From positions 47,897 to 111,896 of the forward strand of contig CAZEJG010000006.1 of assembly GCA_964511625.1 (NCBI GenBank): a DNA stretch of 64,000 nucleotides. Reading direction: 5' to 3'. Below, piece after piece: positions 1-20,208 of this stretch. The stretch's first letter is position 1, and the number at the start of each line of letters is the position of its first letter. The notes beneath the pieces were generated by a model. It saw nothing but the letters and a program-made list of their open reading frames with translations. It was not told where the DNA came from and made no database searches. The position numbers were made by a program, and so were the translations under genes. The DNA comes from an uncultured Hoeflea sp. (GTDB lineage: Bacteria > Pseudomonadota > Alphaproteobacteria > Rhizobiales > Rhizobiaceae).

Positions 1-1086
1 ATGGCGAGCATTGCCAATTTCGACAGCGAAATCCAGCAGACGCGCAAGACCGTCGAGGAGATGCGGACCAAGCTCGAACAGTCGGGCGTGGTCCTCGAGA
101 AGCTCGCCGACACCGACAAGAAGATCGGCGACGCCGAGTTCGACATCGAGAACGCGCGCATCGAGGACGTGCTGCGTCAGCAGAAGGTGATGGAGGCCAA
201 CATCGCCGATCTCATCATCGGGCTCGAGGACGCCACCAACGTGTTCGGCACCGAGTTCGAGAGCATGAAGGGCTATTCCGGCTGGGAGAATTTCGTCTCG
301 ATCTTCTCCAAGTCACGGGCACAGCGCATGCGTACCGACCGCGTGCGCAACATGTCGCTCGCGGGCAACCTGCAGGAGCTGCTCGCCAAGTCCGACACCA
401 TCGTCGGCATCCTGAAGGATCAGAAGACGATCCTCGAAAGCCGCTACAAGACCTCCGAGGAGAGCCTCGTGAAGGTGATCGAGCGCCGCAAGGCAACTAT
501 GGCTCGGCTCGAGGAGACGCAGAAGCGCATCGAGGAACTCAATCCGATGCTGCTCGATGTCGAGAACCGGATCGCCGCGTCGACCGACCAGAAGACCCGC
601 GCGGATCTGGAATCCGAGCGCGCGACACTGGCCACCGAATACAACGAGAAGCAGGCCAAGGAGCAGGAGCTTCTGGCCGAGAGCCAGACGCTGGAGCGCT
701 ATACCTCGATGTTCCAGACCTTCGTGGATTCGCTCAACAACCAGATCGCGGCGCAGTCGACGCTGATCAACAAGCTGTCGATCGATACCGAACAGCGCAT
801 TGTGCTCTACAAGTCGCTCGAGGACTCGCTGAAGACGGCGGCCCAGCAGGACGTCGCCCACAAGATCAACACCCTTGGCTCGAAGGTCGATACGGCCGCC
901 GAGGAAACGATGGCGGGCATCGGCGCCGCGGCGCAGAAGCACATCGGCGATCTTCTGGAAATGCACGAGAAGAACATGCTCTCGACGCAGGACATTCAGC
1001 GCCGCAAGAAGCTTGCCGACGATGCTTTCCAGCGCCGCTTCTCCGAGGTGATGGAGAAGCACAACTCCGCCAAATACGTCCAGTAG
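1..1086 (+). CDS. Coiled-coil protein, possibly a remote TelA/YaaN-like (toxic anion resistance family) protein; first gene of an uncharacterised six-gene cluster
   Basis: Codon position 3 is almost uniformly G/C. The 361-aa product has no TM segment or signal peptide. It is dominated by long charged heptad-like helices (KATMARLEETQKRIEELNPMLLDVENRIAAS, ATLATEYNEKQAKEQELLAESQTLERY). The layout (FVSIFSKSRAQ segment, then long helices, then an I-V-L-Y-K segment) resembles TelA/YaaN, but that is unverified. The ATG sits at window position 1, so the true start could lie upstream. Confidence 0.65.
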   Translation: MASIANFDSEIQQTRKTVEEMRTKLEQSGVVLEKLADTDKKIGDAEFDIENARIEDVLRQQKVMEANIADLIIGLEDATNVFGTEFESMKGYSGWENFVSIFSKSRAQRMRTDRVRNMSLAGNLQELLAKSDTIVGILKDQKTILESRYKTSEESLVKVIERRKATMARLEETQKRIEELNPMLLDVENRIAASTDQKTRADLESERATLATEYNEKQAKEQELLAESQTLERYTSMFQTFVDSLNNQIAAQSTLINKLSIDTEQRIVLYKSLEDSLKTAAQQDVAHKINTLGSKVDTAAEETMAGIGAAAQKHIGDLLEMHEKNMLSTQDIQRRKKLADDAFQRRFSEVMEKHNSAKYVQ

Positions 1087-1089
1087 ACG

Positions 1090-2268
1090 ATGGCCAGTCC
1101 GGCATCGGAGACAGGGGGCGTGGCGGCGGATCCGCAGGACGCCGTCGGGACATATTTCTCGGCCATGCGTTCGGCGCTGAAGGGCTTGCGCATCTATCTC
1201 GCCGATGATTCCTCGCCGCTCTACGGTCACGGTCTCGTCGGACAGGTTGTGGCGGAGTACGTCAACCGGCTGTCGGCCAGCTTTTCGGCCTGGGAGAACC
1301 GCATCGCCTTCATGGACCGGTTCCGCATCAACCGGGCGGAAAGCGGCTATCCGCTCTTCCAGAACGTGCTTGAGCTCGAGAACGATCGCGAGACCGCCAG
1401 GGACCGTCTGGCCGCCATTCCGGAAGCAGACGCGATCAAGGCGGAGATGGCTGACTTCATCCTCCGCCACAAGGCGTTTCCCGACCGGATGCAGACGCAG
1501 ATGGCGGAGCGGCTCTATCTCGAAGGGGTGATCGCGGGGGAGGCCTTCAGCCCCTTCGTGCTGCCGGAAACCATCAAGGTCTCGGTCAACCCGAAAACCA
1601 TGCGGCCTTACTACGTGGTTCACTGGGGCGTGTTCGACGGCAGCCAGATCCTGCCGATGGTCTACATGGCGACGATCGAGGATTCCTCCGAACGTATCCG
1701 TGAAATGCTGGTGACCGACCAGGGCAAGCTCGATCCGAAAGTGCGGATCCCGCTGCCGGTCGGCGGGCTTCTGAACCCCGAATTCGCCCGCGCTTTCGAT
1801 GCCTGCGTGGAACGTAACGGCGCCTATTCTCTCTCGCCGGTGACGATCGCGCAGAATATCGACCAGGAGTTCCCCGAGCTCCATCCCAAGCAGCTGCGGC
1901 GCATCGTGCTCGGCCCGTTCTATTCGGCTGGCATCACGGAGAATTCCGGCCGGGTCAACGAGATCCTGTCGCGGGTGCGCAATCCCGATAACGGATGGGT
2001 GCTGACCTGGACCATCCAGGAGGTCTTTTCCAAGGCGGAGCGTCCCGCCAAGAAGGGTCTGTGGAGCTCGACGCCGGCGGCCGAGGAATTCCACATCGAC
2101 ACCGACAATCTCGAGGCGGTGCGACAGGGTGTGAGCGCTTACGAGAAGCATGCGCTGGTGCCGCACGACGCCTATCAGGCGCTCTATGCGGAAGGGGAGG
2201 CTGCGCGCATCTTCGCCGACTACACCGTCCATGTGATTTCGGGCAACCAGGTGATAACGGAGGTTTGA
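1090..2268 (+). CDS. Hypothetical soluble protein (392 aa), no recognisable domain
   Basis: The ATG lies 3 nt after the stop of the upstream gene, suggesting translational coupling. G/C bias at codon position 3 is strong. No TM segment, signal peptide or motif that I recognise. Confidence 0.75.
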   Translation: MASPASETGGVAADPQDAVGTYFSAMRSALKGLRIYLADDSSPLYGHGLVGQVVAEYVNRLSASFSAWENRIAFMDRFRINRAESGYPLFQNVLELENDRETARDRLAAIPEADAIKAEMADFILRHKAFPDRMQTQMAERLYLEGVIAGEAFSPFVLPETIKVSVNPKTMRPYYVVHWGVFDGSQILPMVYMATIEDSSERIREMLVTDQGKLDPKVRIPLPVGGLLNPEFARAFDACVERNGAYSLSPVTIAQNIDQEFPELHPKQLRRIVLGPFYSAGITENSGRVNEILSRVRNPDNGWVLTWTIQEVFSKAERPAKKGLWSSTPAAEEFHIDTDNLEAVRQGVSAYEKHALVPHDAYQALYAEGEAARIFADYTVHVISGNQVITEV

Positions 2269-2272
2269 CGCG

Positions 2273-4186
2273 ATGAGCCAGACCGCGGGACTGACGACGC
2301 TCTCCGAGGAGGAGATCGAGGCCCATCGGCCGACGGCGCAGCAGATGGTCACGCGCATCGTCGTCGTCAGCGCCGACGATGGCGGGTCCAAGACCGCGCT
2401 TGCCGGCACCGGCCGGCGTTTCGTCTCCACCGTCTCGACCGGCGGCATGCGGCGGACACAGGAGGTGGAACTGGCGAAGACGATCGCCGGCCTGCCGCCG
2501 CAGGATCCGCTTCTCTCGATCCCGCAACATGCGCTGCTGTATCGCGCCCGGCGCGGACTGGCCGTGGCGCTGGCGGTGAGCGAGTCCTTTGCCCGGCAGA
2601 CCGATCTCGAAGACCTCAAGTCACGAAATCTCGGCGCCCCGTTGCAGGGCGAGGAGGCACAGCGCTTCCGCGATCTGCTCGGCGCCTCGAGCTATGTCAC
2701 GGCCTTCACTTTTGCCGCCTATCTCCTGCAGACGCTCGAAGGCGAGAGCGAGCCGGCCGAGGCGGGCGAGCCGAAGATCGAGTTCGACACCCCGCAGGAC
2801 GCGTTGAAATCGCTCGTGGCCGGGCTCGACACGGCGATTGCCGGAGCACCGGACGCCACGGTGATGACGGCGCGGGCCCGGGCCTTTGCCCGCGAGGCTA
2901 TCGAGGCGCTTCTGGCGCGGACGGCGCGGTTCGGTGCGCTTGCAGGTTTTGCCCAGTCGCACATCCGGCTCGAGAGCGACAATTTCACCCTCGACGGGTT
3001 CGAGGTGGCACCGGGCCAGCGTCGCAAGCCGCTCGCCATGAGCTTCAAGAAGCCCAACGAGATCGTCGGCAACCATCTGGCCAAGCACCAGGCCATGCGG
3101 CTGTCGCGGATGATCGTCGCCTATGATTTCGAGCGGCAGATGAACCCCTTCGTCGAGCTCGGCGGCTTCCTCTTCACCTTCATCGGCGACGGCGCGCCGG
3201 GCACCGGCAAGACGATCCTCATCCAGATGATGGCGGGGCTGATCAACGAGTACTGCCAGGTGGCGGGCTATCCCTTCCACTACGAGAATTTCGGCGTCGA
3301 CCAGATCTCCTCCTACCAGGGCAAGTCGGGGCAGAACTGCAAGGCCTTCATCGACGCGGTGGTCAATCCGCGGGCGATCGGCTTCGGCACCATCGACGAT
3401 ATCGATCAGGTGGCCGCCAAGCGATCGGACGACCGTGCCTCCTCGGGCCAGCAGGAAGTCACCGCGGTGCTGATGGAAGCCTTTGCGGGTGCGACCACGG
3501 TGGTGCGCGGCAACTGCACTTTCGGCATGTTCTCGAACTATCCGGAGAACGTCGACGACGCGCTCAGGCAGCGCGCGGGCGCCCGCTGGCTGGTCGACGG
3601 TCCGCAGTCGGAAGACGACTATATCGACATCTTCGCGCTGCTGGCCGGCAAGAACCACCAGATTCCGCTGGGCGACCACGAGCTCTACGCAAGCCAGGAA
3701 ATCAAGCGCGCCGTAAAATCGGCCTACGAGGGGCATTCCCGGCCTGACGAAGAGGGGCTGGCTGCCGTCTGGGAGCGCTTCGAGAAGGCGCACGGCGCGC
3801 CGAAGACGCTGCGCGACGTTGGTGTTTACCTGCACATGATCAAGCAGGCCGAGCCGCGCTTCACCGGTCGCGCGATCAAGAACATCACCGATGCGATCAA
3901 GATGCGGGCGATGGACTTCGATCTGCCGGACGACTGGTTCGCGACGCCCGAGCCGTTCCTGCAAAAATCCTACGACGAGAAGCTGGCGATGATTTCCGAA
4001 CTGCGCGAGCCGTTCACGATCGACATGGTGTTGCAGGAGATCAACCGCTATGCCGATTCCGAATTCCGCTACACCGACCGCGCCGACGATGCGGCAGTGA
4101 CCGACATCATCCGTCGCGAGCGCCAGCGCGAGAGGGCGGCGCGCGAGATCGGCGAACTGAAGGAAAAGGGCGCGTGGGGCGTGTGA
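2273..4186 (+). CDS. Classical-clade AAA ATPase with a large unknown N-terminal domain (~290 aa) and a C-terminal helical extension
   Basis: GGAGG lies 9 nt upstream of the ATG, which is 4 nt after the upstream stop. Walker A is GDGAPGTGKT and Walker B is FGTIDDIDQV. The post-Walker-A signature SSYQGKSGQNCKAFIDAV matches the S-x-[YW]-x-G-[EK]-S pattern of the FtsH/Vps4/p97 type. A second region of homology is present: FGMFSNYPENVDDALRQRAGAR. No protease, TM or known substrate-recognition domain is visible. Confidence 0.9.
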   Translation: MSQTAGLTTLSEEEIEAHRPTAQQMVTRIVVVSADDGGSKTALAGTGRRFVSTVSTGGMRRTQEVELAKTIAGLPPQDPLLSIPQHALLYRARRGLAVALAVSESFARQTDLEDLKSRNLGAPLQGEEAQRFRDLLGASSYVTAFTFAAYLLQTLEGESEPAEAGEPKIEFDTPQDALKSLVAGLDTAIAGAPDATVMTARARAFAREAIEALLARTARFGALAGFAQSHIRLESDNFTLDGFEVAPGQRRKPLAMSFKKPNEIVGNHLAKHQAMRLSRMIVAYDFERQMNPFVELGGFLFTFIGDGAPGTGKTILIQMMAGLINEYCQVAGYPFHYENFGVDQISSYQGKSGQNCKAFIDAVVNPRAIGFGTIDDIDQVAAKRSDDRASSGQQEVTAVLMEAFAGATTVVRGNCTFGMFSNYPENVDDALRQRAGARWLVDGPQSEDDYIDIFALLAGKNHQIPLGDHELYASQEIKRAVKSAYEGHSRPDEEGLAAVWERFEKAHGAPKTLRDVGVYLHMIKQAEPRFTGRAIKNITDAIKMRAMDFDLPDDWFATPEPFLQKSYDEKLAMISELREPFTIDMVLQEINRYADSEFRYTDRADDAAVTDIIRRERQRERAAREIGELKEKGAWGV

Positions 4187-4221
4187 CGAATTATGGTGCG
4201 GGTTGCGGCCGTGCTATCCTG

Positions 4222-4247
4222 CCCGCAGCTGTGCGGGGTTCATTTTT
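4222..4247 (+). terminator. Weak hairpin / possible partial terminator between the AAA gene and the phd-like gene
   Basis: CCCGCA (4222-4227) pairs with TGCGGG (4232-4237) across a GCTG loop, followed by GTTCATTTTT. The stem is only 6 bp and the T-run is offset. Confidence 0.35.
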
Positions 4248-4259
4248 CCGGGGTGGACG

Positions 4260-4469
4260 ATGAAGAGTTTCGGAGTGACTGAGGCACGCAAGCGCTGGAG
4301 TGAACTGTTGGCGAAAGTCGAAGGCGGGGACGAGATCCTCATCACCCGCAAGGGCAAGACGATCGCCAGGCTCGTCGCAGCCGGAGCGTCCCCAGAAGAT
4401 ACGCCTGACGATGCAGTGGTCCCGGTGCCGGGCGAAAAATCCGTGCGCGACATGATCGAGGAAGCATAG
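4260..4469 (+). CDS. Phd/YefM-family type II antitoxin-like protein (69 aa), with no adjacent canonical toxin
   Basis: The N-terminus MKSFGVTEARKRWSELLAKVEGGDEILITRKGKTIARLV is the typical Phd/YefM fold signature. The C-terminal tail is acidic and looks disordered. I chose the internal ATG of track ORF 4203-4469 because a GGTGGA lies upstream of it. Confidence 0.7.
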   Translation: MKSFGVTEARKRWSELLAKVEGGDEILITRKGKTIARLVAAGASPEDTPDDAVVPVPGEKSVRDMIEEA

Positions 4470-4557
4470 CGTTGTATTTCACTGCATCGACTGGCGCTGG
4501 CCGCTTCGGCCCCGAATGCCGTGAAGAGGCACTCCTGTCGAGGCCGGACGGTTTGTC

Positions 4558-5859
4558 ATGAAGCTTCTGGAAACATCCCGGCTGATCTTCGGCAGCCTGC
4601 TCAGGGTTGACGCCCCGCATCTGATCGAGCGCTACAACAAGGCGCTGGTGGCCTTCGGTCTGCGACCGACCGAACTCAAGGCCTTCAGGATCGACATGAC
4701 GGGCTACTCGCCCGAGGTGGCGGAGGAACTCGGCGACCAGGCTTATCTCGACCCCAACGGGGTCAACCGGCGCTTCATCATCCTCACCCCGGAACAGGAA
4801 CGGCTGCCGGTGGTGCACACCCAGTTCTCCAACACCGCCGGGCTGATGCACGAGTTCTTCGAGGGCAACCGCCGGGCGATCTCGGCGGTGACCATCAAGG
4901 ATGCCCTGTTCGGAGAGATCGAGGAGCCGGTGGCGATCGTCAACGATATCGAGGACCTGTTGAAGATCAACGAGGTCAGCTTCCGGGTGCTTTCCGCCGA
5001 CGGACTTCTGGTCAAGGCCACCGAATTGCGGATGCTGGTCGACACGCTGACCACGTCGGAGGCCGGCTGGCGCGACGATGCGATGCTGACCCGCATGGTG
5101 GAGCTGGCGCAGTCGACCGGCGACATCAGGCAGAACCCGCTGGTGCCGGACAAGCTCGTCTTCCCGCATCTGTCCTACTGGGCGGGCCATTTCGGCGGCA
5201 TATTCCTGTTCCGCGACGACAACGCGATGACGGTGATCTGCGACCGTTCGGCGCCCGGCTTCCGGCGCTCGCGACCCTGGGAAGTCAGCTATATCGATAT
5301 TGCCGATCACGAGCGGATCTTCGATTTCCTCGCTCGCAGCGGGCGGCTGCAACTGCCGCAGGCCTCCTGGGTGGAAGCATCGGGGCTCTACCTCCATCGC
5401 GCTCTCATGGCGGTGCACGACCTGATCGGACGTACCGCGCCGGACGAAGACATCTCCGCCTCCGATCCCGTCTGGCTCCAGACCTGGATCCAGCGCAACG
5501 CCCGGGCGATCGCCGCCGACGGTCTCTATCCCTTCTTCCAGGAGGCGTTGCGATCGATCGAGACGGGCGGCCATATCCGGATGGCCGACATCGCGCCGGA
5601 CCGCAGGATGCTTCTCGTACGCGCCGCGCCGGACCATCCCGACAAGTGGCTGGTCAACCGGTTGATCGCGCGGCTATCGCCCTTCGATTTCGTCAGCCGG
5701 TTCGTCTTCGACAAGCAGGGCTTTTACGAAACCTACGCCAGCTACCCGGAAAATTACCGGCGGCATGTTGTGGCGCATCTGACGAACACTTACCTTCCCG
5801 ACAAGGCGGCACTCAGGGCGCGCCTTTACGGTATCGATGGAGCCAGAGACGATGCTTGA
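4558..5859 (+). CDS. Hypothetical soluble protein (433 aa), no recognisable domain
   Basis: Long ORF with strong G/C bias at codon position 3. Its 3' end overlaps the start of the next gene. No TM segment or signal peptide, and no motif I recognise. Confidence 0.75.
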   Translation: MKLLETSRLIFGSLLRVDAPHLIERYNKALVAFGLRPTELKAFRIDMTGYSPEVAEELGDQAYLDPNGVNRRFIILTPEQERLPVVHTQFSNTAGLMHEFFEGNRRAISAVTIKDALFGEIEEPVAIVNDIEDLLKINEVSFRVLSADGLLVKATELRMLVDTLTTSEAGWRDDAMLTRMVELAQSTGDIRQNPLVPDKLVFPHLSYWAGHFGGIFLFRDDNAMTVICDRSAPGFRRSRPWEVSYIDIADHERIFDFLARSGRLQLPQASWVEASGLYLHRALMAVHDLIGRTAPDEDISASDPVWLQTWIQRNARAIAADGLYPFFQEALRSIETGGHIRMADIAPDRRMLLVRAAPDHPDKWLVNRLIARLSPFDFVSRFVFDKQGFYETYASYPENYRRHVVAHLTNTYLPDKAALRARLYGIDGARDDA

Positions 5860-6964
5860 TCCGGTGATCGAATTCTTCGCACGGATATTCAACGCCATCG
5901 GCCGCGGGATCGGCTGGCTGATCGCAATGATCCTCTGGCCGTTCATGGCGGTGGGGCGGTGGTACACCAGGCGCGGCTGGCTGGTGCGGGTGCCGATCCT
6001 GATCCTGCTCATTCTTCTCGTGGTCGGATACGGACACTTCATCTGGGTGGCGGAACGCTGGACGAACTACAATCCGGATTATCCGGACAGGTACGAATTT
6101 GCTGCGCGGACAGTCAGTCCGGGGCAAACGCTGGATGCGGCGCAGCCGGGCAAGTGCGCGCCTTCGGCCATCGTACAGGTGACCGGCGACCTGATCGACT
6201 TCAACGTCAACCAGAACACCTGGGTGCCCTCGATGCCGCTGTCGAAGGCCGGGCTCTTCGGTCTCGACTGGAAATACACCCCCTTCCTCGACAACAAGGC
6301 GGCCTTCCAGCTCGGCATCAACCAGGTGATCCGGCGCACGACCGTGGAACTGGTGGACCGGCTGGGGCGCGTGCGCGGCACCTCGCAGATCAACCAGAAC
6401 CTCCAGGATGCGCGTCAGGCGATGGCTTACGATGAGGACGCCTGGTGGCTGACCTTCACGCCGCCCTTCGTCCAGCCTTCGACCCCCGAACGGCAGCGCG
6501 AGGCGCTTCGCGCGCTGACGGCTTTCAACGGGGAACTCGAAAACTGCACCGGCGAATTCGACGCACGCTCCGACAACCTTCTGCAGTTCCTCGACCGCAT
6601 CACCGGCGACATCGGTTCGACCTCCGATATCCTCCGTCAGCAGATGGAGGCGAGCGACGCCGGCTGGTTCGACGTACGCGCCGACGACCGTTTCTGGTTC
6701 ACCTATGGCCAGCTCTACGCCTATTACGGCCTTCTGCGCGCCACCCAGTCCGACTTTGCCGACGTGTACAATGACCGTCGCATCGATATGGTGTGGGACC
6801 GGACGGCGGATCAGCTGCGCGCATCGCTGGACATGACGCCGTTCATCATTTCAAACGGCAACGAAGCAAGCTGGATCATGCCGTCGCATTTGGCGACGAT
6901 GGGCTTCTACGTTCTCAGGGTGCGTTCGAACCTGGTCGAGATGCGCGACATTCTGGACCGATAG
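5837..6964 (+). CDS. Two-TM membrane protein with a large C-terminal domain, DUF2333-like
   Basis: The N-terminus has two hydrophobic helices (GIGWLIAMILWPFMAV and VRVPILILLILLVVGYGHFIWV) separated by an Arg-rich loop (GRWYTRRGWLVR). About 290 aa of soluble domain follow. The DUF2333 assignment is from memory of that family's architecture. An alternative start at ATG 5852 has GGAG 9 nt upstream and an ATGCTTGA overlap with the upstream stop. Confidence 0.75.
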   Translation: MEPETMLDPVIEFFARIFNAIGRGIGWLIAMILWPFMAVGRWYTRRGWLVRVPILILLILLVVGYGHFIWVAERWTNYNPDYPDRYEFAARTVSPGQTLDAAQPGKCAPSAIVQVTGDLIDFNVNQNTWVPSMPLSKAGLFGLDWKYTPFLDNKAAFQLGINQVIRRTTVELVDRLGRVRGTSQINQNLQDARQAMAYDEDAWWLTFTPPFVQPSTPERQREALRALTAFNGELENCTGEFDARSDNLLQFLDRITGDIGSTSDILRQQMEASDAGWFDVRADDRFWFTYGQLYAYYGLLRATQSDFADVYNDRRIDMVWDRTADQLRASLDMTPFIISNGNEASWIMPSHLATMGFYVLRVRSNLVEMRDILDR

Positions 6965-6980
6965 GTCCGGTCAGGCGCAC

Positions 6981-7691
6981 CTACTGGATCAGTCCCAGAC
7001 GCAAGGCCTTGGCGACCAGCTGGGTCCGGTTGACGCAGTCGAGTTTGCGCATCGCCGCGTTCATGTAGGTGTTGATCGTGTGATCCGACAGCGAGAGGAT
7101 CGAGGCGATTTCGCCCGACGTCTTGCCGTTCGCCACCCATTCGAGAACCTCGACTTCGCGCGAGGTGAGCCTGATCGGCAGCGAATCCGTCCGATTTGGC
7201 AGGCGGTCGAAGATGTCGTAGGCGTGCACCGCTATGAGCCCGAGAATGCTGAGCTCGTGGGCGTTCACCTTGTCCCGGTCTCCGGCGAAAGACACGACGC
7301 CGCGTGTGCCGTCGATCTTGTGGACCGGGATCATCGCGCTGGAGCGAATACCGGCTTCAGCCGCGATTTCCCGCAGCTTGAGGTACTGGGCTTCGGAGCG
7401 CCCCTCACGCATGTCCTCGAGGCACCAGGTCTCCGGAGTTGTCGATTTCCGCAGCCGGGCGAAAAGCGGCGACGTGCCCAGAAGCTGGTGACGGTCGTAA
7501 TCGTCGTGAAACCGGCGCGCGTTGGTGAGGCGCACGTTCGGCTTCAGCTGGGTGTCTTCGGGGGAGGGGAGGTCGTATATCGTGAACGTCGACATGCCGA
7601 ATCTGGCAGCGATCCTCTCCAGGAGACCTGCCATTTCGCTCTCCGAGTGGACGTCCTGGAGAAGCTGCAAAAGTTGAACCCGGTCCGGCAT
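6981..7691 (-). CDS. LuxR-family transcription regulator (autoinducer-binding-like domain plus C-terminal HTH), LuxR solo
   Basis: The C-terminal HTH reads LTSREVEVLEWVANGKTSGEIASILSLSDHTINTYMNAAMRKLDCVNRTQLV. The N-terminal ~160 aa has the length and layout of the AHL-binding domain. No luxI-type gene is present in the window. Confidence 0.85.
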   Translation of the reverse strand: MPDRVQLLQLLQDVHSESEMAGLLERIAARFGMSTFTIYDLPSPEDTQLKPNVRLTNARRFHDDYDRHQLLGTSPLFARLRKSTTPETWCLEDMREGRSEAQYLKLREIAAEAGIRSSAMIPVHKIDGTRGVVSFAGDRDKVNAHELSILGLIAVHAYDIFDRLPNRTDSLPIRLTSREVEVLEWVANGKTSGEIASILSLSDHTINTYMNAAMRKLDCVNRTQLVAKALRLGLIQ

Positions 7692-7804
7692 TCGATAACT
7701 GAAATCAAGTTAAGCTGATAAGTTGTCAGGTTCTTCGTTACATCAATCGGCGTCCGGTACCAACGTCGGCGGAGTGTTTTGCGGAGATTTTCATAATCTA
7801 ATGG

Positions 7805-8275
7805 TTAAACCGGCAGCTTGTCGGTGTTCTTGATCTCCTCCATGACCGCGTAAGTATGGGTTTCGCGGATGCCAGGCAGGGAGAGGATTACATCGGAGAG
7901 AAAGCTGCGGTAGGTGTCCATGCCGCGCACCCGCGCCTTGATGAGGTAGTCGAAGCCGCCGGCGACCATGTGGCACTCCATCACCTCCTCGGCCTTGCGG
8001 ATGGCCCGGGCGAACTCGTCGAACACCTCCGGTGTGGTGCGATCGAGCTTGACCTCGACATAGACCAGCATCCCGAGTTCGAGCTTTTCAGGCGACAGCA
8101 TGGCTTGATAACCGAGAATGTAGCCGTCCCTTGTCAGCCTCTTGAGACGTTCGGCCGTCGCGGTCGGCGACAGGCTGATCTTCTCCGCCAGTTGCAGGTT
8201 CGTCAGCCGCCCGTCGTCCTGTACGGCGCGGAGGATCTTGCGGTCGATGCGGTCCAAACTCTTTGCGTTCACCAA
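7805..8275 (-). CDS. putR: Lrp/AsnC-family transcriptional regulator, divergent from putA (PutR-type proline-responsive activator)
   Basis: LDRIDRKILRAVQDDGRLTNLQLAEKISLSPTATAERLKRL is the HTH, followed by an AsnC-type ligand domain. It sits divergently next to putA, as in other alphaproteobacteria. The track start is TTG, and a GTG 3 nt downstream is equally possible. Confidence 0.85.
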   Translation of the reverse strand: MVNAKSLDRIDRKILRAVQDDGRLTNLQLAEKISLSPTATAERLKRLTRDGYILGYQAMLSPEKLELGMLVYVEVKLDRTTPEVFDEFARAIRKAEEVMECHMVAGGFDYLIKARVRGMDTYRSFLSDVILSLPGIRETHTYAVMEEIKNTDKLPV

Positions 8276-8378
8276 AAAGCGCCTTTCAGATGGAGATTTT
8301 CCCCAATTCTATATCCGTAATCGGTGAGATAATAGATGTATAATCCTGTATGGTGTGAAAAACACGGGAGAGTTATTC
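8276..8378. promoter_or_regulatory. putR-putA divergent control region
   Basis: An AT-rich 103-bp spacer in a GC-rich genome. A perfect TATAAT hexamer lies at 8339-8344 on the + strand, but it has no good -35 at 16-18 bp spacing, as expected for an activator-dependent promoter. A GGGAGA Shine-Dalgarno lies 7 nt before ATG 8379. Confidence 0.5.
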
Positions 8379-11300
8379 ATGGCCATTGCCCGCCCCCAGC
8401 CGGACACCGATCACACCGACATCGCGCCTTTCCACGCGCCGCATGCGCCCGACGACGACAAGTTGATCAAGGGGTTTGCCAGGAAGCTCACGCTCACCGA
8501 ATCCCAGGAGCGCTCGATCGATTTGCGTGCCACGCGGATGATCGAGGCGATCCGTGACGGGGCCGGGTCGATCGGCGGTGTCGAGGACTTCCTGCGCGAA
8601 TACGGCCTGTCGACCCGCGAGGGGCTGGCGTTGATGGTTCTGGCCGAAGCGCTGTTACGGGTGCCCGATGCGCTGACCCAGGACAAGCTGATTGAGGACA
8701 AGCTCAAGGAAGGCCATTGGAGCGAGCACGAAGCGCATGGCGAAAGCTGGTTCGTCTCGGCGTCGGCCTGGGCGCTCGGCATGTCGGCGCGGGTGATCCG
8801 TCCGGGGGAAACGCCCGAAGGCGTGATGCGCGGGATGGTCAAGCGCATGGGCATGCCGACGGTCCGCACCGCGACGCGCCAGGCGATGCGGTTCCTCGGC
8901 TACCATTTCGTGCTCGGCGAAACCATCGAGGATGCGCTCAGCCGCGCTGCCAGGAACGAGGCGCGGGGCTATCGGCACTCCTTTGACATGCTGGGCGAGG
9001 GCGCGCGTACCCGCGACGACGCGAGGCGCTATTTCAAATCCTATGCCGACGCGATTGCCGCCATCGGCAAGGCGGCGAAGAAGATGAATGCCGGCAAGAA
9101 GCTGCCCGACCGCCCCGGCATTTCGGTCAAGCTGTCGGCGCTGCATCCGCGCTATCTGCCGGCCCATGCCGAGCAGGTGATGGCCGAACTGGTGCCCGAC
9201 GTCATCGACCTGGCACGTATGGCCAAGGCGCACGATCTGAACTTCACCATCGACGCCGAGGAGGTCGATCGGCTCGAACTCTCTCTCGACGTCATCGACC
9301 GGGTGTTCTCCGATCCCTCGCTCTCCGGCTGGGACGGCTTCGGTCTGGCGATCCAGGCCTATCAGAAGCGCGCGCCGGAAGTGATCGAACATATCGGCGA
9401 ACTCTGCCGCTCGAACGACCGGCGCATGATGGTGCGGCTGGTCAAGGGCGCCTACTGGGACACGGAGATCAAGCGCGCTCAGGAGCGGGGTCTCGACGAC
9501 TACGCCGTCTACACCCGCAAGGCCGCGACCGATTTGAGCTATCTCGCCTGCGCGCGGCAGATGCTCGACATGCGCGACCGTCTCTATCCGCAATTCGCCA
9601 CTCACAACGCGCTCACCGTCGCGACCATCATGGAGATGGCCGGCGAGTTGAAGGGCTTCGAGTTCCAGCGCCTGCACGGCATGGGCGAGGTGCTCTACGA
9701 CAGCCTGATGAAGACCAACGAGCGGGTGTCCTGCCGCGTCTATGCGCCGGTCGGCGGCTACCGCGACCTGCTCGCCTATCTGGTGCGGCGGCTTCTCGAG
9801 AACGGCGCCAACTCCTCCTTCGTGGCGGTCGCAGGTGACAAGAAGATCCCGATTTCCGATCTCCTCGAACGCCCGGCCCGGAAGCTCGGCCTCGACGAGG
9901 GCCGCTCGGCGCGCAACGGCAACATTCCGCTACCCGGCGCGCTTTACGACGGCCGGCGCAATTCGTCCGGCATCGAGTTCGGCGACCGGTACGAACTGGC
10001 GGAAGTGACCGAGGGCATGGCGAAGGCCGTGGACACGGTCGACGCCGTCCCGCTCATTCCGGGCCTCAAGCCGTCCGGCACGGCGCGAAAGGTCGTCGCG
10101 CCACACGATCCGAAGCTGACGGTCGGATCGGTGGTCTTCGCCACGCCCGACGAGGTGGAGCCGGCGATGGCCGCGGCGCTGAAGGGGTTCAAGGTCTGGT
10201 CGCGCACGTCTGCCGAAGCGCGCGGGGTCATTCTCGAACGCGCCGCCGACCAGCTCGAGGCCAATCGCGACCGGCTTCTGTCGTTGCTTGCCCGCGAAGG
10301 CGGCAAGACGATCGAGGACGGCATTTCGGAGGTGCGCGAGGCGACCGATTTTCTTCGCTACTACGCCAATCGCGGACGCGAGATGTTTTCCGCCATGCAA
10401 GTGATGCCCGGGCCGACGGGCGAGGACAACCGCCTCGGCTGGCGCGGACGCGGCGTCTTCGCCTGTATCGCGCCGTGGAATTTTCCGCTCGCCATCTTCA
10501 TCGGCCAGGTAACGGCCGCACTCGCTGCCGGCAATGCGGTGGTCGCCAAGCCGGCCGAGCAGACGCCGCTGATCGCCTACGAGGCGATCCGGATCCTGCA
10601 TGAGGCGGGCGTGCCGAAGGATGCGCTGATCTTCCTGCCTGGCGAGGGCGATGTGGGCGCGGCGCTGACCGCACATCCGAAGATCGGCGGTGTAGCTTTC
10701 ACCGGTTCGACGCAAACCGCCCAGGCGATCAACCGGACGCTTGCCGCCAAGGACGGGCCCATCGTTCCGCTGATCGCGGAAACCGGCGGTCTCAACGCGA
10801 TGATCGTCGATGGCACGGCACTTCCCGAACAGGTGGCCGACGACGTGGTGATGTCGGCCTTCCGCTCCGCCGGCCAGCGCTGCTCGGCGCTCCGACTGCT
10901 GTTCGTGCAGGACGACGTCGCCGACCGCATGCTGGAGATGATCGAGGGGGCGGCGCGCGAACTCGTGCTTGGCGATCCGATGCTCCCCTCCACCGATATC
11001 GGTCCGGTGATCGACCGTGACCAGCAGACCATGCTCGCCGACCACGTCGCGGCCATGCGCAAGAGCCAGAAGGTTCGCTATCAGGGCGAGGCGCCGGCCG
11101 AGGGTACCTGGTTCGCACCGACGATCGTGGAGCTGTCGAAGGCGGAAGCGCTCGATCGCGAGATCTTCGGCCCGGTGCTGCATGTGGTCCGCTGGAAGGC
11201 CAAGGATCTGGACAAGGTGCTCGACAAGATCGAGGCGACCGGGTTCGGCCTGACGCTCGGAGTGCATACGCGCATCGAGGCGCTGGTGCGCAAGGTCGTC

Positions 11301-11513
11301 GACCGGCTCGACACCGGCAACGTCTATGTCAACCGCAACATCATCGGCGCAGTCGTCGGCACCCAACCCTTCGGCGGCTCGGGGCTCTCCGGAACCGGCT
11401 TCAAGGCGGGCGGACCCAACTATCTCAGCCGTTTCGCGGTCGAGCAGGTGGTTTCTGTCAACACGGCCGCCTCGGGCGGCAACGCCAGCCTGATTGCGAT
11501 GGGCGACGGTTAG
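8379..11513 (+). CDS. putA: Bifunctional proline dehydrogenase / L-glutamate gamma-semialdehyde dehydrogenase PutA (short form without an N-terminal ribbon-helix-helix domain)
   Basis: About 1044 aa, with a PRODH barrel region followed by an aldehyde dehydrogenase domain (FTGSTQTAQAI, ETGGLNAMIVD, SAGQRCSALR). I prefer ATG 8379, which has a strong SD, over the track's GTG at 8355. Confidence 0.95.
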   Translation: MAIARPQPDTDHTDIAPFHAPHAPDDDKLIKGFARKLTLTESQERSIDLRATRMIEAIRDGAGSIGGVEDFLREYGLSTREGLALMVLAEALLRVPDALTQDKLIEDKLKEGHWSEHEAHGESWFVSASAWALGMSARVIRPGETPEGVMRGMVKRMGMPTVRTATRQAMRFLGYHFVLGETIEDALSRAARNEARGYRHSFDMLGEGARTRDDARRYFKSYADAIAAIGKAAKKMNAGKKLPDRPGISVKLSALHPRYLPAHAEQVMAELVPDVIDLARMAKAHDLNFTIDAEEVDRLELSLDVIDRVFSDPSLSGWDGFGLAIQAYQKRAPEVIEHIGELCRSNDRRMMVRLVKGAYWDTEIKRAQERGLDDYAVYTRKAATDLSYLACARQMLDMRDRLYPQFATHNALTVATIMEMAGELKGFEFQRLHGMGEVLYDSLMKTNERVSCRVYAPVGGYRDLLAYLVRRLLENGANSSFVAVAGDKKIPISDLLERPARKLGLDEGRSARNGNIPLPGALYDGRRNSSGIEFGDRYELAEVTEGMAKAVDTVDAVPLIPGLKPSGTARKVVAPHDPKLTVGSVVFATPDEVEPAMAAALKGFKVWSRTSAEARGVILERAADQLEANRDRLLSLLAREGGKTIEDGISEVREATDFLRYYANRGREMFSAMQVMPGPTGEDNRLGWRGRGVFACIAPWNFPLAIFIGQVTAALAAGNAVVAKPAEQTPLIAYEAIRILHEAGVPKDALIFLPGEGDVGAALTAHPKIGGVAFTGSTQTAQAINRTLAAKDGPIVPLIAETGGLNAMIVDGTALPEQVADDVVMSAFRSAGQRCSALRLLFVQDDVADRMLEMIEGAARELVLGDPMLPSTDIGPVIDRDQQTMLADHVAAMRKSQKVRYQGEAPAEGTWFAPTIVELSKAEALDREIFGPVLHVVRWKAKDLDKVLDKIEATGFGLTLGVHTRIEALVRKVVDRLDTGNVYVNRNIIGAVVGTQPFGGSGLSGTGFKAGGPNYLSRFAVEQVVSVNTAASGGNASLIAMGDG

Positions 11514-11595
11514 GTCGACGCTCCGGCGTGTCGCAACCGGCATGAAATTACGGACGGATCGGTGGTGCATTCCCCAGCGAACCGCTTTAAGTCTT

Positions 11596-11617
11596 CCCCG
11601 GGTGGCATTCTCCGGGG
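11596..11617 (+). promoter_or_regulatory. Hairpin in the fhs 5' leader that overlaps the Shine-Dalgarno sequence
   Basis: CCCCGG (11596-11601) pairs with CCGGGG (11612-11617) across a 10-nt loop. The right arm overlaps the GGGGGAG SD (11614-11620), which lies 9 nt before ATG 11630. Confidence 0.3.
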
Positions 11618-11629
11618 GAGACCAAAGAC

Positions 11630-13309
11630 ATGAGTGAATACCGGTCGGATATCGAAATCGCGCGCGCGGCGCAAAAGAAGCCGATCGGCGAGATCGGCGC
11701 CAGGCTCGGTATTCCGGGCGAGCATCTTCTGCCCTTCGGCCACGACAAGGCGAAAATCTCCTCGGACTTCATCGCCTCGCTCGACGACCGGCCAGACGGC
11801 AAGCTGATCCTGGTAACGGCCATCAGCCCGACGCCGGCCGGTGAGGGCAAGACGACGACGACCGTGGGTCTCGGAGACGGGCTGTCCCGGATCGGCAAGA
11901 AGACGGCGATTTGTCTGCGCGAACCCTCACTGGGCCCCAATTTCGGCATCAAGGGCGGAGCGGCCGGCGGCGGCCGGGCGCAGGTCGTGCCGATGGAAGA
12001 CATCAACCTTCATTTCACCGGCGATTTTCATGCGATCACCACCGCCAACAACCTGCTGGCGGCCCTGATCGACAACCACATCCATTGGGGTAACGACCTC
12101 GATATCGACGTGCGGCGGGTCAGCTGGCGGCGGGTGGTCGACATGAACGACCGGGCGCTGCGCCAGATCGTCTCCTCGCTCGGCGGGGCGCCGAACGGGT
12201 TTCCGCGCGAGACCGGGTTCGACATCACGGTGGCTTCGGAAGTCATGGCAATTCTGTGCCTGGCGCGCGATCTCAGTGACCTGCAGCGCCGGCTCGGCAA
12301 CATCGTCATCGGTGCGCGGCGCGACAAGAGCCCCGTCTATGCCCGCGATCTCAAGACCGACGGCGCGATGACGGTGCTCCTGAAGGATGCGATGCAGCCC
12401 AATCTGGTGCAGACGCTCGAACATACGCCGGCTTTCGTGCATGGCGGTCCCTTTGCCAACATCGCCCATGGCTGCAATTCGGTGGTCGCCACGCGCACGG
12501 CGCTGAAGCTCGCGGATTTCGTCGTCACCGAGGCCGGCTTCGGGGCCGATCTCGGGGCGGAAAAGTTCTTCGACATCAAGTGCCGCAAGGCGGGGCTGAA
12601 CCCGGCTGCCGCGGTGATCGTCGCCACCGTCCGGGCGCTGAAGATGAACGGCGGGGTGGCGAAGGCCGATATCGGCGCCGAGAACATCGAGGCGCTGACG
12701 GCCGGCTGCGCCAATCTCGGTCGCCATGTCGAGAACGTCATGGGGTTCGGCGTGCCGGTGGTGGTCGCCATCAACCATTTCGCCACGGATACGCTCTCCG
12801 AAATCGAGGCGATCCGGAACTATTGCGACAGTCTCGGCGTGGAAGCGATCCTTTGCCGGCACTGGGCGCAGGGCTCGGCGGGCATCGAGGAACTCGCGCA
12901 CAAGGTGGCCGAACTCGCCGAAAGCGGGCAGGCGCAGTTCTCGCCTCTCTATCCCGACAGCATGCCGCTGTTCGAAAAGATCGAGACTGTTGCGCGCAGC
13001 ATCTACCGCGCGGGCGAAGTCGCCGCCGGAAAGTCGGTGCGTGACGATCTCGCGCGCTGGGAGGAGCAGGGCTACGGCAAGCTGCCGGTCTGCATGGCCA
13101 AGACGCAGTACTCGTTCTCCGCCGATCCGGGCCTGCTCGGCGCGCCGTCCGGCCACACGCTGCCGGTGCGCGAAGTACGGCTGTCGGCCGGGGCAGGTTT
13201 CGTCGTCGCCGTCTGCGGCGACATCATGACCATGCCCGGCCTGCCGCGCTCGCCGTCATCCGAACGGATCGGACTGACGGCGCAGGGCGATATCGAGGGG
13301 CTGTTCTGA
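11630..13309 (+). CDS. fhs: Formate--tetrahydrofolate ligase
   Basis: 559 aa. Family motifs are [24 protein letters not shown] and a conserved C-terminal region. Confidence 0.95.
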
Positions 13310-13313
13310 CAGC

Positions 13314-13349
13314 AAAAGACCCCGCTGCCATGAGACAGCGGGGTCTTTT
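13314..13349. terminator. Bidirectional rho-independent terminator between convergent fhs and the TonB-dependent receptor gene
   Basis: AAAAGACCCCGCTG - loop - CAGCGGGGTCTTTT. The 10-bp GC-rich stem is flanked by an A-run and a T-run. Confidence 0.8.
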
Positions 13350-13372
13350 CATGCACTGCCGATGCGCGACGA

Positions 13373-15667: not shown

Positions 15668-15825
15668 GGATTGACCCCCTGACAGAGCCGCGAGATGGTT
15701 GCGGATTGCGGCTCTTCGAACATGTGTGATGATCGGCTGGCTGTCGGGCGGAAGGCTTCCGCGCAGAGGGCTGGCTGGTTTGTAATGGACTGTCTGCGTT
15801 CGCGAAATGCGCAGTCTGTAACTGC

Positions 15826-15854
15826 CACATAAAAAACATGAGGAATTAAGTCAA
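15826..15854 (-). promoter_or_regulatory. Candidate sigma70-type promoter of the heme receptor gene, overlapped by a TGA-N9-TCA (RirA IRO-box-like) motif
   Basis: On the minus strand, TTGACT (15854-15849) is followed by a 17-nt spacer and then TATGTG (15831-15826), all within an AT-rich island. On the + strand, TGA (15839-15841) - 9 nt - TCA (15851-15853) overlaps the -35 and spacer. This is a low-information motif. Confidence 0.4.
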
Positions 15855-16004
15855 CATAAACTGGACGAACATGGTCGGTTCGGCGGCGGCACGAGTTCGT
15901 CCGACGTGACCTGTTGCCAAAATGCCGCGCGTTTTTGCCACGGTGCAGGAACGCGCGCTATTTTCTATCTGCTCTCCTGTGACAACCGCCCGAAGGATCC
16001 CGCC

Positions 16005-16214
16005 ATGACCGATTTTGCACTTTCCACCGATCACGATGTCTCCGCCGATGCCGAATACGAGGCCGGCGTCCGCCAGATTTCGCTGTTCTTCGCCGCCGTC
16101 ATCGCGCTGGCCGTCGGTTCGACGGTGGTCTTCGGTTTCGCCGGGCTGATCACCTTCTTCGTCGCGGCCGCCGCGGTGATGCTTGTGACGCTGGTGGTCT
16201 TGACCCTCGGCTGA
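16005..16214 (+). CDS. Small membrane protein (69 aa), hypothetical
   Basis: An internal ATG of track ORF 15906-16214, with AAGGA 8 nt upstream. One or two hydrophobic helices are present (ISLFFAAVIALAVGSTVVFGFAGLITFFVAAAAVMLVTLVVL). G/C bias at codon position 3 is strong. Confidence 0.6.
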   Translation: MTDFALSTDHDVSADAEYEAGVRQISLFFAAVIALAVGSTVVFGFAGLITFFVAAAAVMLVTLVVLTLG

Positions 16215-16273
16215 GCCGCCGTCACGCTCGATCCATCTTGCGCGCGACCGGCGGTTTCGCTAAGGAGAACGCC

Positions 16274-16318
16274 ATGACTATTTGCGCACAGAACATGAAC
16301 TGGTGGTGGACCCGCTGA
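16274..16318 (+). CDS. trpL: Tryptophan leader peptide (14 aa, MTICAQNMNWWWTR)
   Basis: AAGGAG lies 6 nt upstream of the ATG. Three consecutive TGG codons occupy 16301-16309. The ORF sits immediately upstream of an attenuator hairpin and trpE(G). It is too short to appear in the ORF track. Confidence 0.85.
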   Translation: MTICAQNMNWWWTR

Positions 16319-16355
16319 AGGCGGTGCTGACCACGCATGTGTGCATGATCAACAA

Positions 16356-16387
16356 GCCGCCCGGAACAGGTCCAGGCGGCTTTTTTG
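16356..16387 (+). terminator. trp attenuator terminator
   Basis: GCCGCC (16356-16361) pairs with GGCGGC (16375-16380), followed by TTTTTTG. The alternative pairing of GGCGG (16320-16324) with CCGCC (16357-16361) would act as an antiterminator. Confidence 0.85.
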
Positions 16388-16432
16388 TTTCGGCCGTCCG
16401 GAGAGAACCTGACGGGCGAAACGGAGGGTGAC

Positions 16433-18622: not shown

Positions 18623-18647
18623 TCTGCCACAGGCAGGGAGAGACGAG

Positions 18648-19022: not shown

Positions 19023-19025
19023 CGC

Positions 19026-19922: not shown

Positions 19923-20208
19923 ATGCCGGAACGGCTTCGCCTTGACATTGACGCGTTTGTCAGGCTTATGCACATCAACCGGATGGGGGCCTCTCGGCCG
20001 CACTCGTGCGTAAGGACCAGTCAATGAGGACTGGCGGCGCGAACTGACTCCCCCTTTTCCCCTCGAAGAATTCACGTGCATCCGGCGGCGATGCACCGAA
20101 CCAGACACCCCGATGCGCATGTCGCGCACCGGGAGACACTCCGTTGCGGATCGCGCCGGAGGCCTCGTTCGTCGTTGTGCCCCGCTATCCGCCGAAAGAA
20201 AGAACCAA

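Follow-up and report, generated by a model that had tools for sequence, protein, structure and literature searches.

We analysed a stretch of 64,000 nucleotides (nt) of DNA from an uncultured Hoeflea sp. (assembly GCA_964511625.1, contig CAZEJG010000006.1, positions 47,897 to 111,896), hereafter the window, and focused on the tightly spaced gene cluster at its start, which is built around a classical AAA ATPase. An earlier reading made from the letters alone (the sequence-only reading) had described six open reading frames (ORFs) in this cluster. ORF calling in the window placed all six at the same coordinates on the + strand:

ORF1, 1-1086, + strand: 361 amino acids (aa), all-helical, with a long helical hairpin; core gene 1
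ORF2, 1090-2268, + strand: 392 aa, soluble; core gene 2
ORF3, 2273-4186, + strand: 637 aa, classical-clade AAA ATPase; core gene 3, the motor
phd-like gene, 4260-4469, + strand: 69 aa; accessory insert
ORF5, 4558-5859, + strand: 433 aa, DUF6638; core gene 4
ORF6, 5837-6964, + strand: 375 aa, DUF2333 membrane protein; alternative start at 5852

Gaps and overlap were reproduced as well, with spacings of 3, 4, 73 and 88 nt along ORF1 to ORF5 and an ORF6/ORF5 overlap of 23 nt, which shrinks to 8 nt if ORF6 starts at its second ATG (5852). Comparison with related loci revealed that the conserved unit comprises four core genes and a membrane partner, making a five-gene set. This differs from the six-gene unit that had been proposed, as the phd-like gene is no component of it.

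The four-gene core keeps its order across deep lineages

Conservation was assessed in two samples. Scanning one genome per species with ORF2 yielded 61 loci, 55 of which were testable for gene order; complementarily, a metagenome search with two family-specific AAA motifs provided 80 loci of at least 357 relatives. Both sets were annotated with hidden Markov models (HMMs) built for this analysis, and single loci are denoted by number (L001, L002 and so on). The genome loci stem from Rhizobiaceae (Ensifer/Sinorhizobium, Pararhizobium, Shinella), the Hoeflea/Pseudohoeflea group, Mesorhizobium, Nitratireductor, Roseitalea and Ahrensia, with the nearest ORF2 relatives (84-87% identity) residing in a Hyphomicrobiales metagenome-assembled genome and in Pseudohoeflea suaedae. 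In related genome loci, tblastn recovered ORF1, ORF2, the AAA gene, DUF6638 and DUF2333 in the same order as in the window, and the order of the core (ORF1, ORF2, classical AAA ATPase, DUF6638) proved to be fixed:

ORF1 and ORF2 upstream of the AAA gene, in order: genome loci 55 of 55; metagenome loci 56 of 56
DUF6638 downstream of the AAA gene: genome loci 55 of 55; metagenome loci 54 of 55
Fifth gene DUF2333: genome loci 55 of 55; metagenome loci 41 of 50
Fifth gene DUF1523: genome loci 0 of 55; metagenome loci 9 of 50
Fifth gene absent: genome loci 0 of 55; metagenome loci 0 of 50

The divergent contigs L065, L067, L068, L069, L071, L072, L073 and L077 likewise carry all four genes in this order, and the core was found in at least six deep lineages, between which protein identity drops to 21-35% and G+C (GC) content ranges from 34 to 65%. 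Overall, about 140 loci from widely different organisms retain the gene order, which puts the adjacency far beyond chance. The synteny check thus came out in favour of a real functional cluster, as the sequence-only reading had assumed. Spacing is similarly tight, with an ORF2-AAA gap of -1 to 15 nt in eight out of nine lineage representatives (98 nt in Vibrio) and a 4-nt overlap of the AAA and DUF6638 genes in some lineages. Upstream of ORF1, relatives carry a cytochrome c gene and a divergent choline/betaine ABC transporter; these neighbours are common to about 50 of the 61 genome loci and represent ordinary chromosomal synteny. The module is real and ancient, and it has moved horizontally on an evolutionary timescale.

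Two loci deviate in detail. L094, a contig of 22% GC with a strong AAA-family member at 72-1967 (814 bits), is the sole DUF6638 exception: none was detectable in the 8 kb downstream, and the upstream side is cut by the contig end. On the 359-kb viral contig L078, about 900 nt without an ORF of at least 90 aa (8941-9835) lie between ORF2 and the AAA gene, which in other loci are nearly always no more than 15 nt apart.

ORF3 carries the motifs of a polypeptide-threading AAA ATPase

ORF3 matched the AAA domain PF00004 at residues 307-437 (E = 5e-11), and its best sequence matches in the PDB were Cdc48, i-AAA/YME1, proteasomal Rpt/PAN and FIGL1. At the residue level, its Walker A motif GAPGTGKT aligned to GPPGTGKT of Cdc48, pore loop 1 (SYQGKS) to the pore loops SKMAGES/SMWFGES, sensor 1 (SNYP) to TNRP, and the second region of homology (SRH; DDALRQRAGAR) to DPALRR with its arginine fingers. 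Walker A was invariant in 7-10 divergent members; in 7 divergent members the same held for the YQG of pore loop 1, for sensor 1 and for the SRH arginines. Walker B reads IDDID (window 3383-3397, residues ~371-375) where Cdc48 has IDEID. The pattern I-D-D-I/V-D recurred in every member examined, making Asp at the catalytic Glu position a signature of the family. Judged by its sequence, the AAA module appears to have every motif needed for ATP-driven threading of polypeptides through a central pore, and both PF00004 and the alignment to Cdc48 bear out the classical AAA motor named in the sequence-only reading.

The AAA module (residues ~300-460) is flanked by a family-specific N-domain (~1-280) and a conserved C-terminal region that is likewise specific to the family. 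No Pfam domain, MIT included, was detected in residues 1-300, and a profile search of the PDB returned no relative of the N-domain. The protein contains neither a protease domain nor a transmembrane anchor.

ORF1 is a slowly evolving helical-hairpin protein

ORF1 belongs to no Pfam, NCBIfam, PADLOC or PHROG family. Its own family is small: among 1.84 billion clusters at 50% identity, HMMER found 301 representatives with E <= 1e-3, and full-length members are of near-constant length (~340-390 aa). Across Hyphomicrobiales, ORF1 is 80-95% identical and the most conserved protein of the module, and it is always the first core gene in genome and metagenome loci. The AlphaFold2 model is all-helical, with a mean predicted local distance difference test (pLDDT) score of 66.6 and local values that exceed 90 near residues 160-220. 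Its helices 121-193 and 197-287 pair as a hairpin, with shorter helices ahead of it. The model agrees with the all-helical coiled-coil protein predicted earlier. In sequence, conservation is highest at residues ~93-124 and 262-300.

A Foldseek search of this model against the PDB gave no match at E <= 1e-3 and retrieved generic long helical bundles at template-modelling (TM) scores of 0.2-0.4, the weak fold matches being an SMC coiled-coil arm (top), ClyA-family toxins, F-BAR domains and chemoreceptors. Sequence and profile searches of the PDB returned coiled-coil noise only, including PspA/Vipp1 at E-values of 0.15-1.2. Kinship with PspA was rejected, as aligning a 36-sequence ORF1 profile to E. 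coli PspA with hhalign gave a probability of 0.5%. In the same line, neither the window protein nor the 36 family members matched Pfam PspA_IM30 or Snf7. As to the fold, the model shows a long hairpin, but its top 50 PDB matches included no ESCRT-III or PspA structure.

The sequence-only reading had tentatively called ORF1 TelA-like. By sequence this was rejected for the window protein, which showed no PF05816 match at E <= 0.1, and TelA was not among the families shown for 36 ORF1 members scanned at E <= 10. Among the viral structure models of BFVD, the top matches of the model did include phage proteins 366-367 aa long that bear the names "Tellurite resistance" or "Toxic anion resistance" (E-values of 1.3e-3 to 3.3e-3), with TM scores of only 0.26-0.29 for a query model of pLDDT 66.6. 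The TelA label is thus left without backing from sequence and with a faint structural resemblance (BFVD E-values of 1e-3, TM ~0.3). A single NCBI record labels an ORF1 homologue "chromosome segregation ATPase".

ORF2 and DUF6638 complete the core

The 392-aa ORF2 product and the 433-aa ORF5 product had both been said to match nothing recognisable. This held for ORF2, which has no Pfam, NCBIfam, PADLOC or PHROG family and whose exact sequence was not on record upon lookup. A marginal PDB profile match to Csm6 (E = 0.01) was taken as chance. ORF2 is the fastest-evolving core member, with 20-44% identity between deep lineages, all of which have its homologue flanked by ORF1 and the AAA gene. It did not hold for ORF5, which is a member of DUF6638 (PF20343; E = 2e-80, 271 bits versus a gathering cut-off of 27), the match spanning residues 10-428 on profile positions 1-413 of 439. 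The DUF6638 homologues listed are all single-domain proteins of 429-433 aa, and the PDB holds no sequence relative. AlphaFold2 modelled DUF6638 confidently only in a C-terminal helical domain (~250-425), with pLDDT below 50 at residues 1-245. A Foldseek search against the PDB found no match (best E = 0.38) and was uninformative because of the poorly modelled residues 1-245.

The fifth gene encodes a periplasm-facing membrane protein

ORF6 is a DUF2333 protein (PF10095; E = 1e-19, 71 bits versus a cut-off of 22) that covers the profile only partly (positions 87-202 of 330). It also matched two full-length DUF2333 proteins, from L078 (E = 5.5e-8) and from Vibrio (E = 1.7e-12). It is the only one of the six products with transmembrane segments, located at residues ~21-39 and 44-74, and the loop between the two helices (RWYTRRGWLVR) carries a charge of +4. 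Phage-borne DUF2333 has a single N-terminal signal anchor, to which the Hyphomicrobiales forms add one helix. As the positive-inside rule and the single-anchor homologues agree, the ~300-aa DUF2333 domain is placed in the periplasm. The earlier assignment of ORF6 as a DUF2333 membrane protein with a large periplasmic domain is thereby corroborated by PF10095, the loop charge and the homologues. A sequence and profile search found no PDB relative of DUF2333.

A fifth-gene membrane protein was present in all 105 testable loci, DUF2333 in 96 and DUF1523 in nine. The link between DUF2333 and the core recurs in three deep lineages, at two different positions. Although DUF2333 and DUF1523 are both membrane proteins, a common superfamily was rejected (hhalign probability 0.2%), so the membrane partners were apparently recruited independently. 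Further membrane-related genes occur in single lineages: small proteins with two transmembrane segments are extra module genes in L065 and L068, and the L065 module contains a full-length dynamin-family GTPase (Dynamin_N positions 1-167 of 168, E = 2e-16). The Vibrio DUF2333 gene is flanked by a membrane-anchored GTPase and a TolA-C protein; this GTPase was not called a dynamin because it has only the P-loop region in common with the dynamin-like protein of L065.

The phd-like gene marks an insertion hotspot within the module

The 69-aa product between the AAA and DUF6638 genes matched the antitoxin families PF02604 (E = 7e-9, 35.8 bits versus a cut-off of 29.8) and TIGR01552 (E = 4e-7, 29.2 bits versus 20.8), the Phd-domain match being limited to its N-terminal 41 aa. 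Homologues were found by tblastn with the window protein in only three out of 61 related genome loci, and no toxin-sized ORF lies in 4469-4558 or upstream of 4260. L056 has a Phd-like gene with a 4-nt overlap into a PIN toxin gene, which itself runs into the DUF6638 start. The distance between the AAA and DUF6638 genes is bimodal (<=150 nt in 49 loci, 0.4-1 kb in 66 and >1 kb in three). Across L003-L061 and L079-L158, an insert of 0.4-1 kb is present in about half of ~127 loci, reaching 6.1 kb in L098, and one S. meliloti strain (L064) carries an ISRm16 transposase at this site. The inserts in this gap were:

HTH_3 protein: 25 loci
DUF559 endonuclease: 12 loci
ParE-family toxins, two groups: nine and eight loci
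PIN toxin: four loci
RHH antitoxin: four loci

The AAA-DUF6638 gap (window 4187-4557) is a hotspot for toxin-antitoxin (TA) and endonuclease insertion, and the phd-like gene is a solo antitoxin, the remnant of a Phd-VapC cassette and no part of the machine. Type II TA systems with Phd/YefM (Phd-Doc, YefM-YoeB, Phd-type/VapC) share with it the N-terminal Phd fold and, in L056, a PIN toxin paired with the homologous gene at the same position; they differ in that the window gene has no adjacent toxin.

Related loci share a housekeeping-type promoter

As the window starts at the ATG of ORF1, the promoter region of this gene was viewed in related loci. Rhizobiaceae loci share a conserved CTTGTG/CTTGAC-N17-TATATAA about 70-90 nt upstream of ORF1, and in L003-L050 this promoter, placed at about 130 nt before the ORF1 homologue, is followed by a conserved leader of ~70 nt with CTGAATAAT and a GC-rich segment. 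The leader could be a regulatory 5' untranslated region. No sigma-EcfG box (GGAAC-N16-17-CGTT) was found upstream of ORF1 in the related loci. A sigma-70-type promoter and no EcfG box suggest housekeeping-type expression. This promoter architecture lends no support to the stress-response role that the sequence-only reading had considered.

The S. meliloti 1021 orthologues lie between tdk/choXWV and fhs and are probably SMc02730-SMc02735. Counting genes from choXWV, SMc02733 could be the module's AAA gene; as neighbouring locus tags could not be traced to confirm this, it was not used as evidence. A ChvI-binding fragment from a screen of the ExoS/ChvI envelope-stress regulon maps inside SMc02733 (S. 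meliloti 1021 chromosome, 2,587,012-2,587,177; PMC3687685).

Within the window, the hairpin noted earlier in the 73-nt gap was recovered, and the cluster is bordered by a convergent LuxR solo, as had been described:

Terminator-like hairpin, 4222-4237, with a T-run to 4247, + strand: 36 nt past the AAA stop codon; consensus match only
LuxR-family solo, 6981-7691, - strand: convergent border of the cluster
Lrp-type regulator, 7805-8275, - strand: beyond the LuxR solo
PutA, 8355-11513, + strand: divergently transcribed, beyond the Lrp-type regulator

The hairpin reads CCCGCAGCTGTGCGGG and is followed by the T-run GTTCATTTTT. Terminator-like sites were not enriched in this region (six versus 5.1 expected from shuffled sequence). 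No tRNA gene was found in window positions 1-20000 and no Rfam match in 1-12000, and GC content is uniform over the cluster (0.60-0.67), like the flanks. The LuxR, Lrp and PutA genes are common only to the closest relatives (L001, L002 and partly L014) and, being shared with the nearest relatives only, lie outside the module.

The module travels on plasmids, megaplasmids and phage-like contigs

The sequence-only reading had regarded the cluster as a resident chromosomal module. This applies to the present genome and its relatives; for the family as a whole it does not, as a rhizobial plasmid, Vibrio megaplasmids and huge-phage-like contigs carry the module too. Among 72,556 plasmid records, tblastn detected DUF6638 in ten and the AAA N-domain in exactly the same ten. 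Plasmids of Vibrio parahaemolyticus and V. vulnificus (0.88-0.94 Mb) encode proteins like ORF1 (36% identity, E = 3e-70) and ORF2 (24%, 3e-40) together with the AAA protein (38%, 4e-159) and DUF6638 (26%, 5e-42), their genes standing in the core order, and the four core-bearing Vibrio megaplasmids encode DUF2333 (E = 6e-111) ~350 kb away from the core. DUF2333 of this type is present in only six of the 72,556 records, four of which are the core-bearing Vibrio megaplasmids. A plasmid of R. leguminosarum carries a diverged copy with 50-63% identity, also in core order.

On the contig L077, the five genes stand in window order, and the DUF2333 protein is 37% identical to that of the window over 273 aa. 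PHROG hits, a tRNA-Val, an amber-suppressor tRNA and dense, co-directional small genes make this contig look phage-like; the module's neighbours are PTH2, YqeY, Thg1 and a DnaJ-type zinc-finger protein. L078 (IMG/VR contig UViG_3300035698_035310, 359 kb) encodes a full-length DUF2333 (E = 8e-91) upstream of an ORF1 that is 42.5% identical to the window's, with ORF2, the AAA gene and DUF6638 following. It is flanked by HNH endonucleases, tRNAs, a DnaQ-like exonuclease, DnaJ, peptide deformylase and a ClpA/B-like ATPase. A search of 50,697 deposited phage genomes detected neither ORF1 nor DUF6638 homologues, which points to uncultured viral carriers. With Vibrio ORF1 as the query, no viral relatives of that protein were found on viral contigs.

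Several carriers showed further peculiarities. The suppressor-type tRNA of L077 (4540-4614; contig GC 35.5%) has the anticodon CTA, which reads amber (labelled Pyl by ARAGORN), and stop codons may be recoded in that phage. In L071, a 13-kb contig of 55% GC, 14 tRNA genes (Pro, Leu, His, Val, Tyr) at 60-3923 adjoin the module, and this array suggests a huge phage or megaplasmid as the carrier. The Vibrio-type context (L062, L069, L072 and L073) represents a low-GC megaplasmid lineage with constant flanking genes around the core: an RNase H-family gene and two small genes upstream, one with a methyltransferase-like DxGxGxG, and downstream a plasmid-borne mfd (transcription-repair coupling factor), which is unusual for a plasmid. 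Finally, the 3.72-Mb record CP090106.1 (L064), entitled "S. meliloti strain Ak57 plasmid pSymB", carries choVWX, tdk and fhs and, judged by its size and content, appears to be a mislabelled chromosome in the plasmid collection.

Discussion

We found no characterised system with this gene set in the literature or in profile libraries, in line with the sequence-only reading; in the literature searched, DUF2333, DUF6638 and DUF1523 were tied to no system, DUF2333 being mentioned once, incidentally, DUF6638 not at all and DUF1523 in no relevant way. Taken as a whole, the system is without a described counterpart, though its motor is a member of a known superfamily.

Our best reading remains the membrane-associated, ATP-driven machine that had been proposed from the sequence, which we advance tentatively and would stop short of calling probable: an AAA remodeller in the cytoplasm that would cooperate with its own set of partners at the inner membrane. 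The AAA protein would assemble as a ring, and its family-specific N-domain would recognise one dedicated soluble partner. The likeliest client would be ORF1, the slowly evolving and possibly self-assembling helical hairpin, whose weak fold matches include membrane-active helical bundles (ClyA-family toxins, F-BAR domains and TelA-annotated phage proteins). The ring may remodel or disassemble this client where the inner membrane faces the cytoplasm. ORF2 and DUF6638 could serve as adaptors or regulators, DUF2333 (or DUF1523) could couple the process to the periplasm or envelope, and expression would probably be constitutive. The mode of action may, by analogy, resemble membrane maintenance of the ESCRT-III/Vps4 or PspA type, or the extraction of membrane proteins by Msp1 or FtsH; homology to ESCRT-III/PspA or to Msp1/FtsH substrates was not detected. 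In a bolder version, which we regard as possible yet rather doubtful, the module would be an unrecognised ATP-driven machine for envelope or membrane remodelling that is analogous, and not homologous, to ESCRT-III/Vps4 or PspA. Such a machine would perform a housekeeping task in many alphaproteobacteria, and giant phages and megaplasmids would presumably use it to manipulate the host envelope.

Several observations weigh against a remodelling machine at the membrane. The four core proteins have no transmembrane segment, the tiny cytoplasmic part of DUF2333 limits direct contact with cytoplasmic partners, and both the R. leguminosarum plasmid copy and L071 lack a recognisable membrane partner nearby. 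The module's surroundings on the phage-like contigs consist of genes for proteostasis and tRNA-related functions, with no envelope genes among them. ORF1 has no detectable homology to PspA/ESCRT-III or to Pfam TelA, its Foldseek matches are generic for long helical bundles, and its role as the AAA client is conjecture. Walker B is D-D where the canonical motif is D-E. Moreover, no characterised homologue constrains the function, which we infer.

Comparison with known systems places the module close to several of them. It resembles ESCRT-III/Vps4 (archaeal CdvB/CdvC) and PspA/Vipp1 in that it has a classical AAA protein beside a conserved helical-hairpin protein and is associated with membrane proteins and, in one of its lineages, with a dynamin-family GTPase. 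However, ORF1 is ~360 aa long compared with ~220 aa and shows no detectable homology to PspA, the AAA N-domain contains no detectable MIT domain as in Vps4, and ORF2 and DUF6638, obligatory here, have no counterpart in the ESCRT-III and PspA systems. The TelA family (PF05816; KlaB of RK2, YceH) is linked to envelope stress and resembles ORF1 in size, in its all-helical make-up and through the TelA-annotated BFVD matches; it differs by the missing Pfam TelA match and a TM score of ~0.3, and we know of no TelA gene reported with an AAA ATPase or DUF6638 companion. Of the classical unfoldases and related proteins (Cdc48/p97, FtsH/YME1, Rpt/PAN, Msp1, FIGL1), the ATPase module of ORF3 is a true clade member. 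Unlike these, ORF3 has a single AAA module, a ~280-aa N-domain and a C-terminal region without detectable relatives and a D-D Walker B, with neither protease domain nor transmembrane anchor. AAA-containing defence systems (CBASS TRIP13-HORMA, ietAS, RADAR) also combine an AAA protein with accessory proteins and are partly mobile. Here, though, PADLOC-DB v2 yielded matches to TRIP13 (1.4e-4) and IetA (0.005-0.05) on the AAA domain alone and none for ORF2, the phd-like protein, DUF6638 or DUF2333; the similarity is generic (E-values of 1.4e-4 to 0.05), no partner matched, and inheritance in Hyphomicrobiales is vertical and syntenic. Beyond generic AAA-domain similarity, the PADLOC check was negative, with no match to a known defence system.

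A role in anti-phage or inter-element conflict would nevertheless be conceivable, with ORF2 or DUF6638 as the sensor, the AAA protein as the transducer and DUF2333/DUF1523 as an effector that acts, for example, by membrane disruption or abortive infection, or in superinfection exclusion on phages and megaplasmids. The mobile or giant carriers (rhizobial plasmid, Vibrio megaplasmids, L077, L078), the fast evolution of ORF2, the TA/endonuclease hotspot inside the operon and the weak AAA-domain matches to the TRIP13 and IetA models would all fit, and the interchangeable membrane partners resemble effector swapping. We consider such a role unlikely, as PADLOC models matched only at the level of a generic AAA domain (best E = 1.4e-4), Pfam, NCBIfam and PADLOC revealed no effector domain of the nuclease, protease, NADase or pore-forming kind, and the 50,697 deposited phage genomes contain no homologue. 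Unlike patchy defence islands, the module is intact in all 55 testable Hyphomicrobiales genomes, with upstream neighbours common to about 50 of 61 loci, an ORF1 conserved at 80-95% and a housekeeping-type promoter. The same constitutive-type promoter would suit a function in proteostasis or membrane-protein quality control, in which the AAA protein acts as an unfoldase or extractase in the manner of Msp1, Cdc48 or FtsH, ORF1, ORF2 and DUF6638 are substrate adaptors and the DUF2333-type protein is an anchor or client. In favour of this function are the classical-clade unfoldase motifs including the aromatic pore loop, the proximity of DnaJ, peptide deformylase and a ClpA/B-like ATPase in L078 and of PTH2, YqeY, Thg1 and a DnaJ-type zinc-finger protein in L077, and the very small cytoplasmic portion of DUF2333, which is easier to reconcile with a role as client or anchor than with one in signalling. 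However, there is no protease partner or protease domain, the adjacency to chaperone genes is confined to two phage-like contigs and may reflect the genome organisation of giant phages, and neither the invariable co-inheritance of three soluble proteins nor the conservation of ORF1 would be explained. We regard quality control as improbable, while noting that it overlaps with the membrane-remodelling explanation and is hard to tell apart from it in silico.

Two further explanations fare worse. In a replicon-associated system for DNA organisation or segregation, ORF1 would be an SMC-like coiled coil and the ATPase would drive the remodelling of DNA or the nucleoid. The very large carriers (0.88-0.94-Mb Vibrio plasmids, the 359-kb viral contig), the mfd and RNase H-family neighbours in the Vibrio-type context, the SMC coiled-coil arm as the top Foldseek match of ORF1 and the NCBI label "chromosome segregation ATPase" on one ORF1 homologue speak for it. 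Yet ORF1, at ~360 aa, has no ATPase head or hinge, its SMC-type matches reflect coiled-coil composition, Pfam revealed no DNA-binding domain in any core protein, and the near-universal fifth gene encodes a periplasm-facing membrane protein. Classical-clade AAA proteins, moreover, act on polypeptides, not DNA, and we see very little prospect for this explanation. Chance adjacency of unrelated same-strand genes could be argued from the two larger gaps and the terminator-like hairpin after the AAA gene, which could mean separate transcription units. It deserves practically no credence and is refuted by the conservation data, that is by order and co-occurrence in ~140 loci at identities down to 21-35% and over a GC range of 34-64%, and by the 4-nt overlap of the AAA and DUF6638 genes in some lineages. 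A membrane-associated machine driven by the AAA motor remains the reading we prefer.

Among the five conserved proteins, four are without a characterised relative; two of these fall into no family at all and two into DUF families only. Their co-inheritance with a classical AAA motor spans alpha- and gammaproteobacterial replicons as well as giant-phage-like elements. DUF2333 and DUF6638 gain a functional context, two new families (ORF1 and ORF2) are defined, and the annotation is corrected in that the phd-like gene is not counted in the system. Its presence in Sinorhizobium meliloti and Ensifer, in which in-frame deletions, localisation studies and pull-downs with ATPase traps are routine, renders the module experimentally tractable. 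If the membrane reading is true, it would represent a new kind of bacterial AAA-powered envelope machine, carried also by huge phages and megaplasmids.

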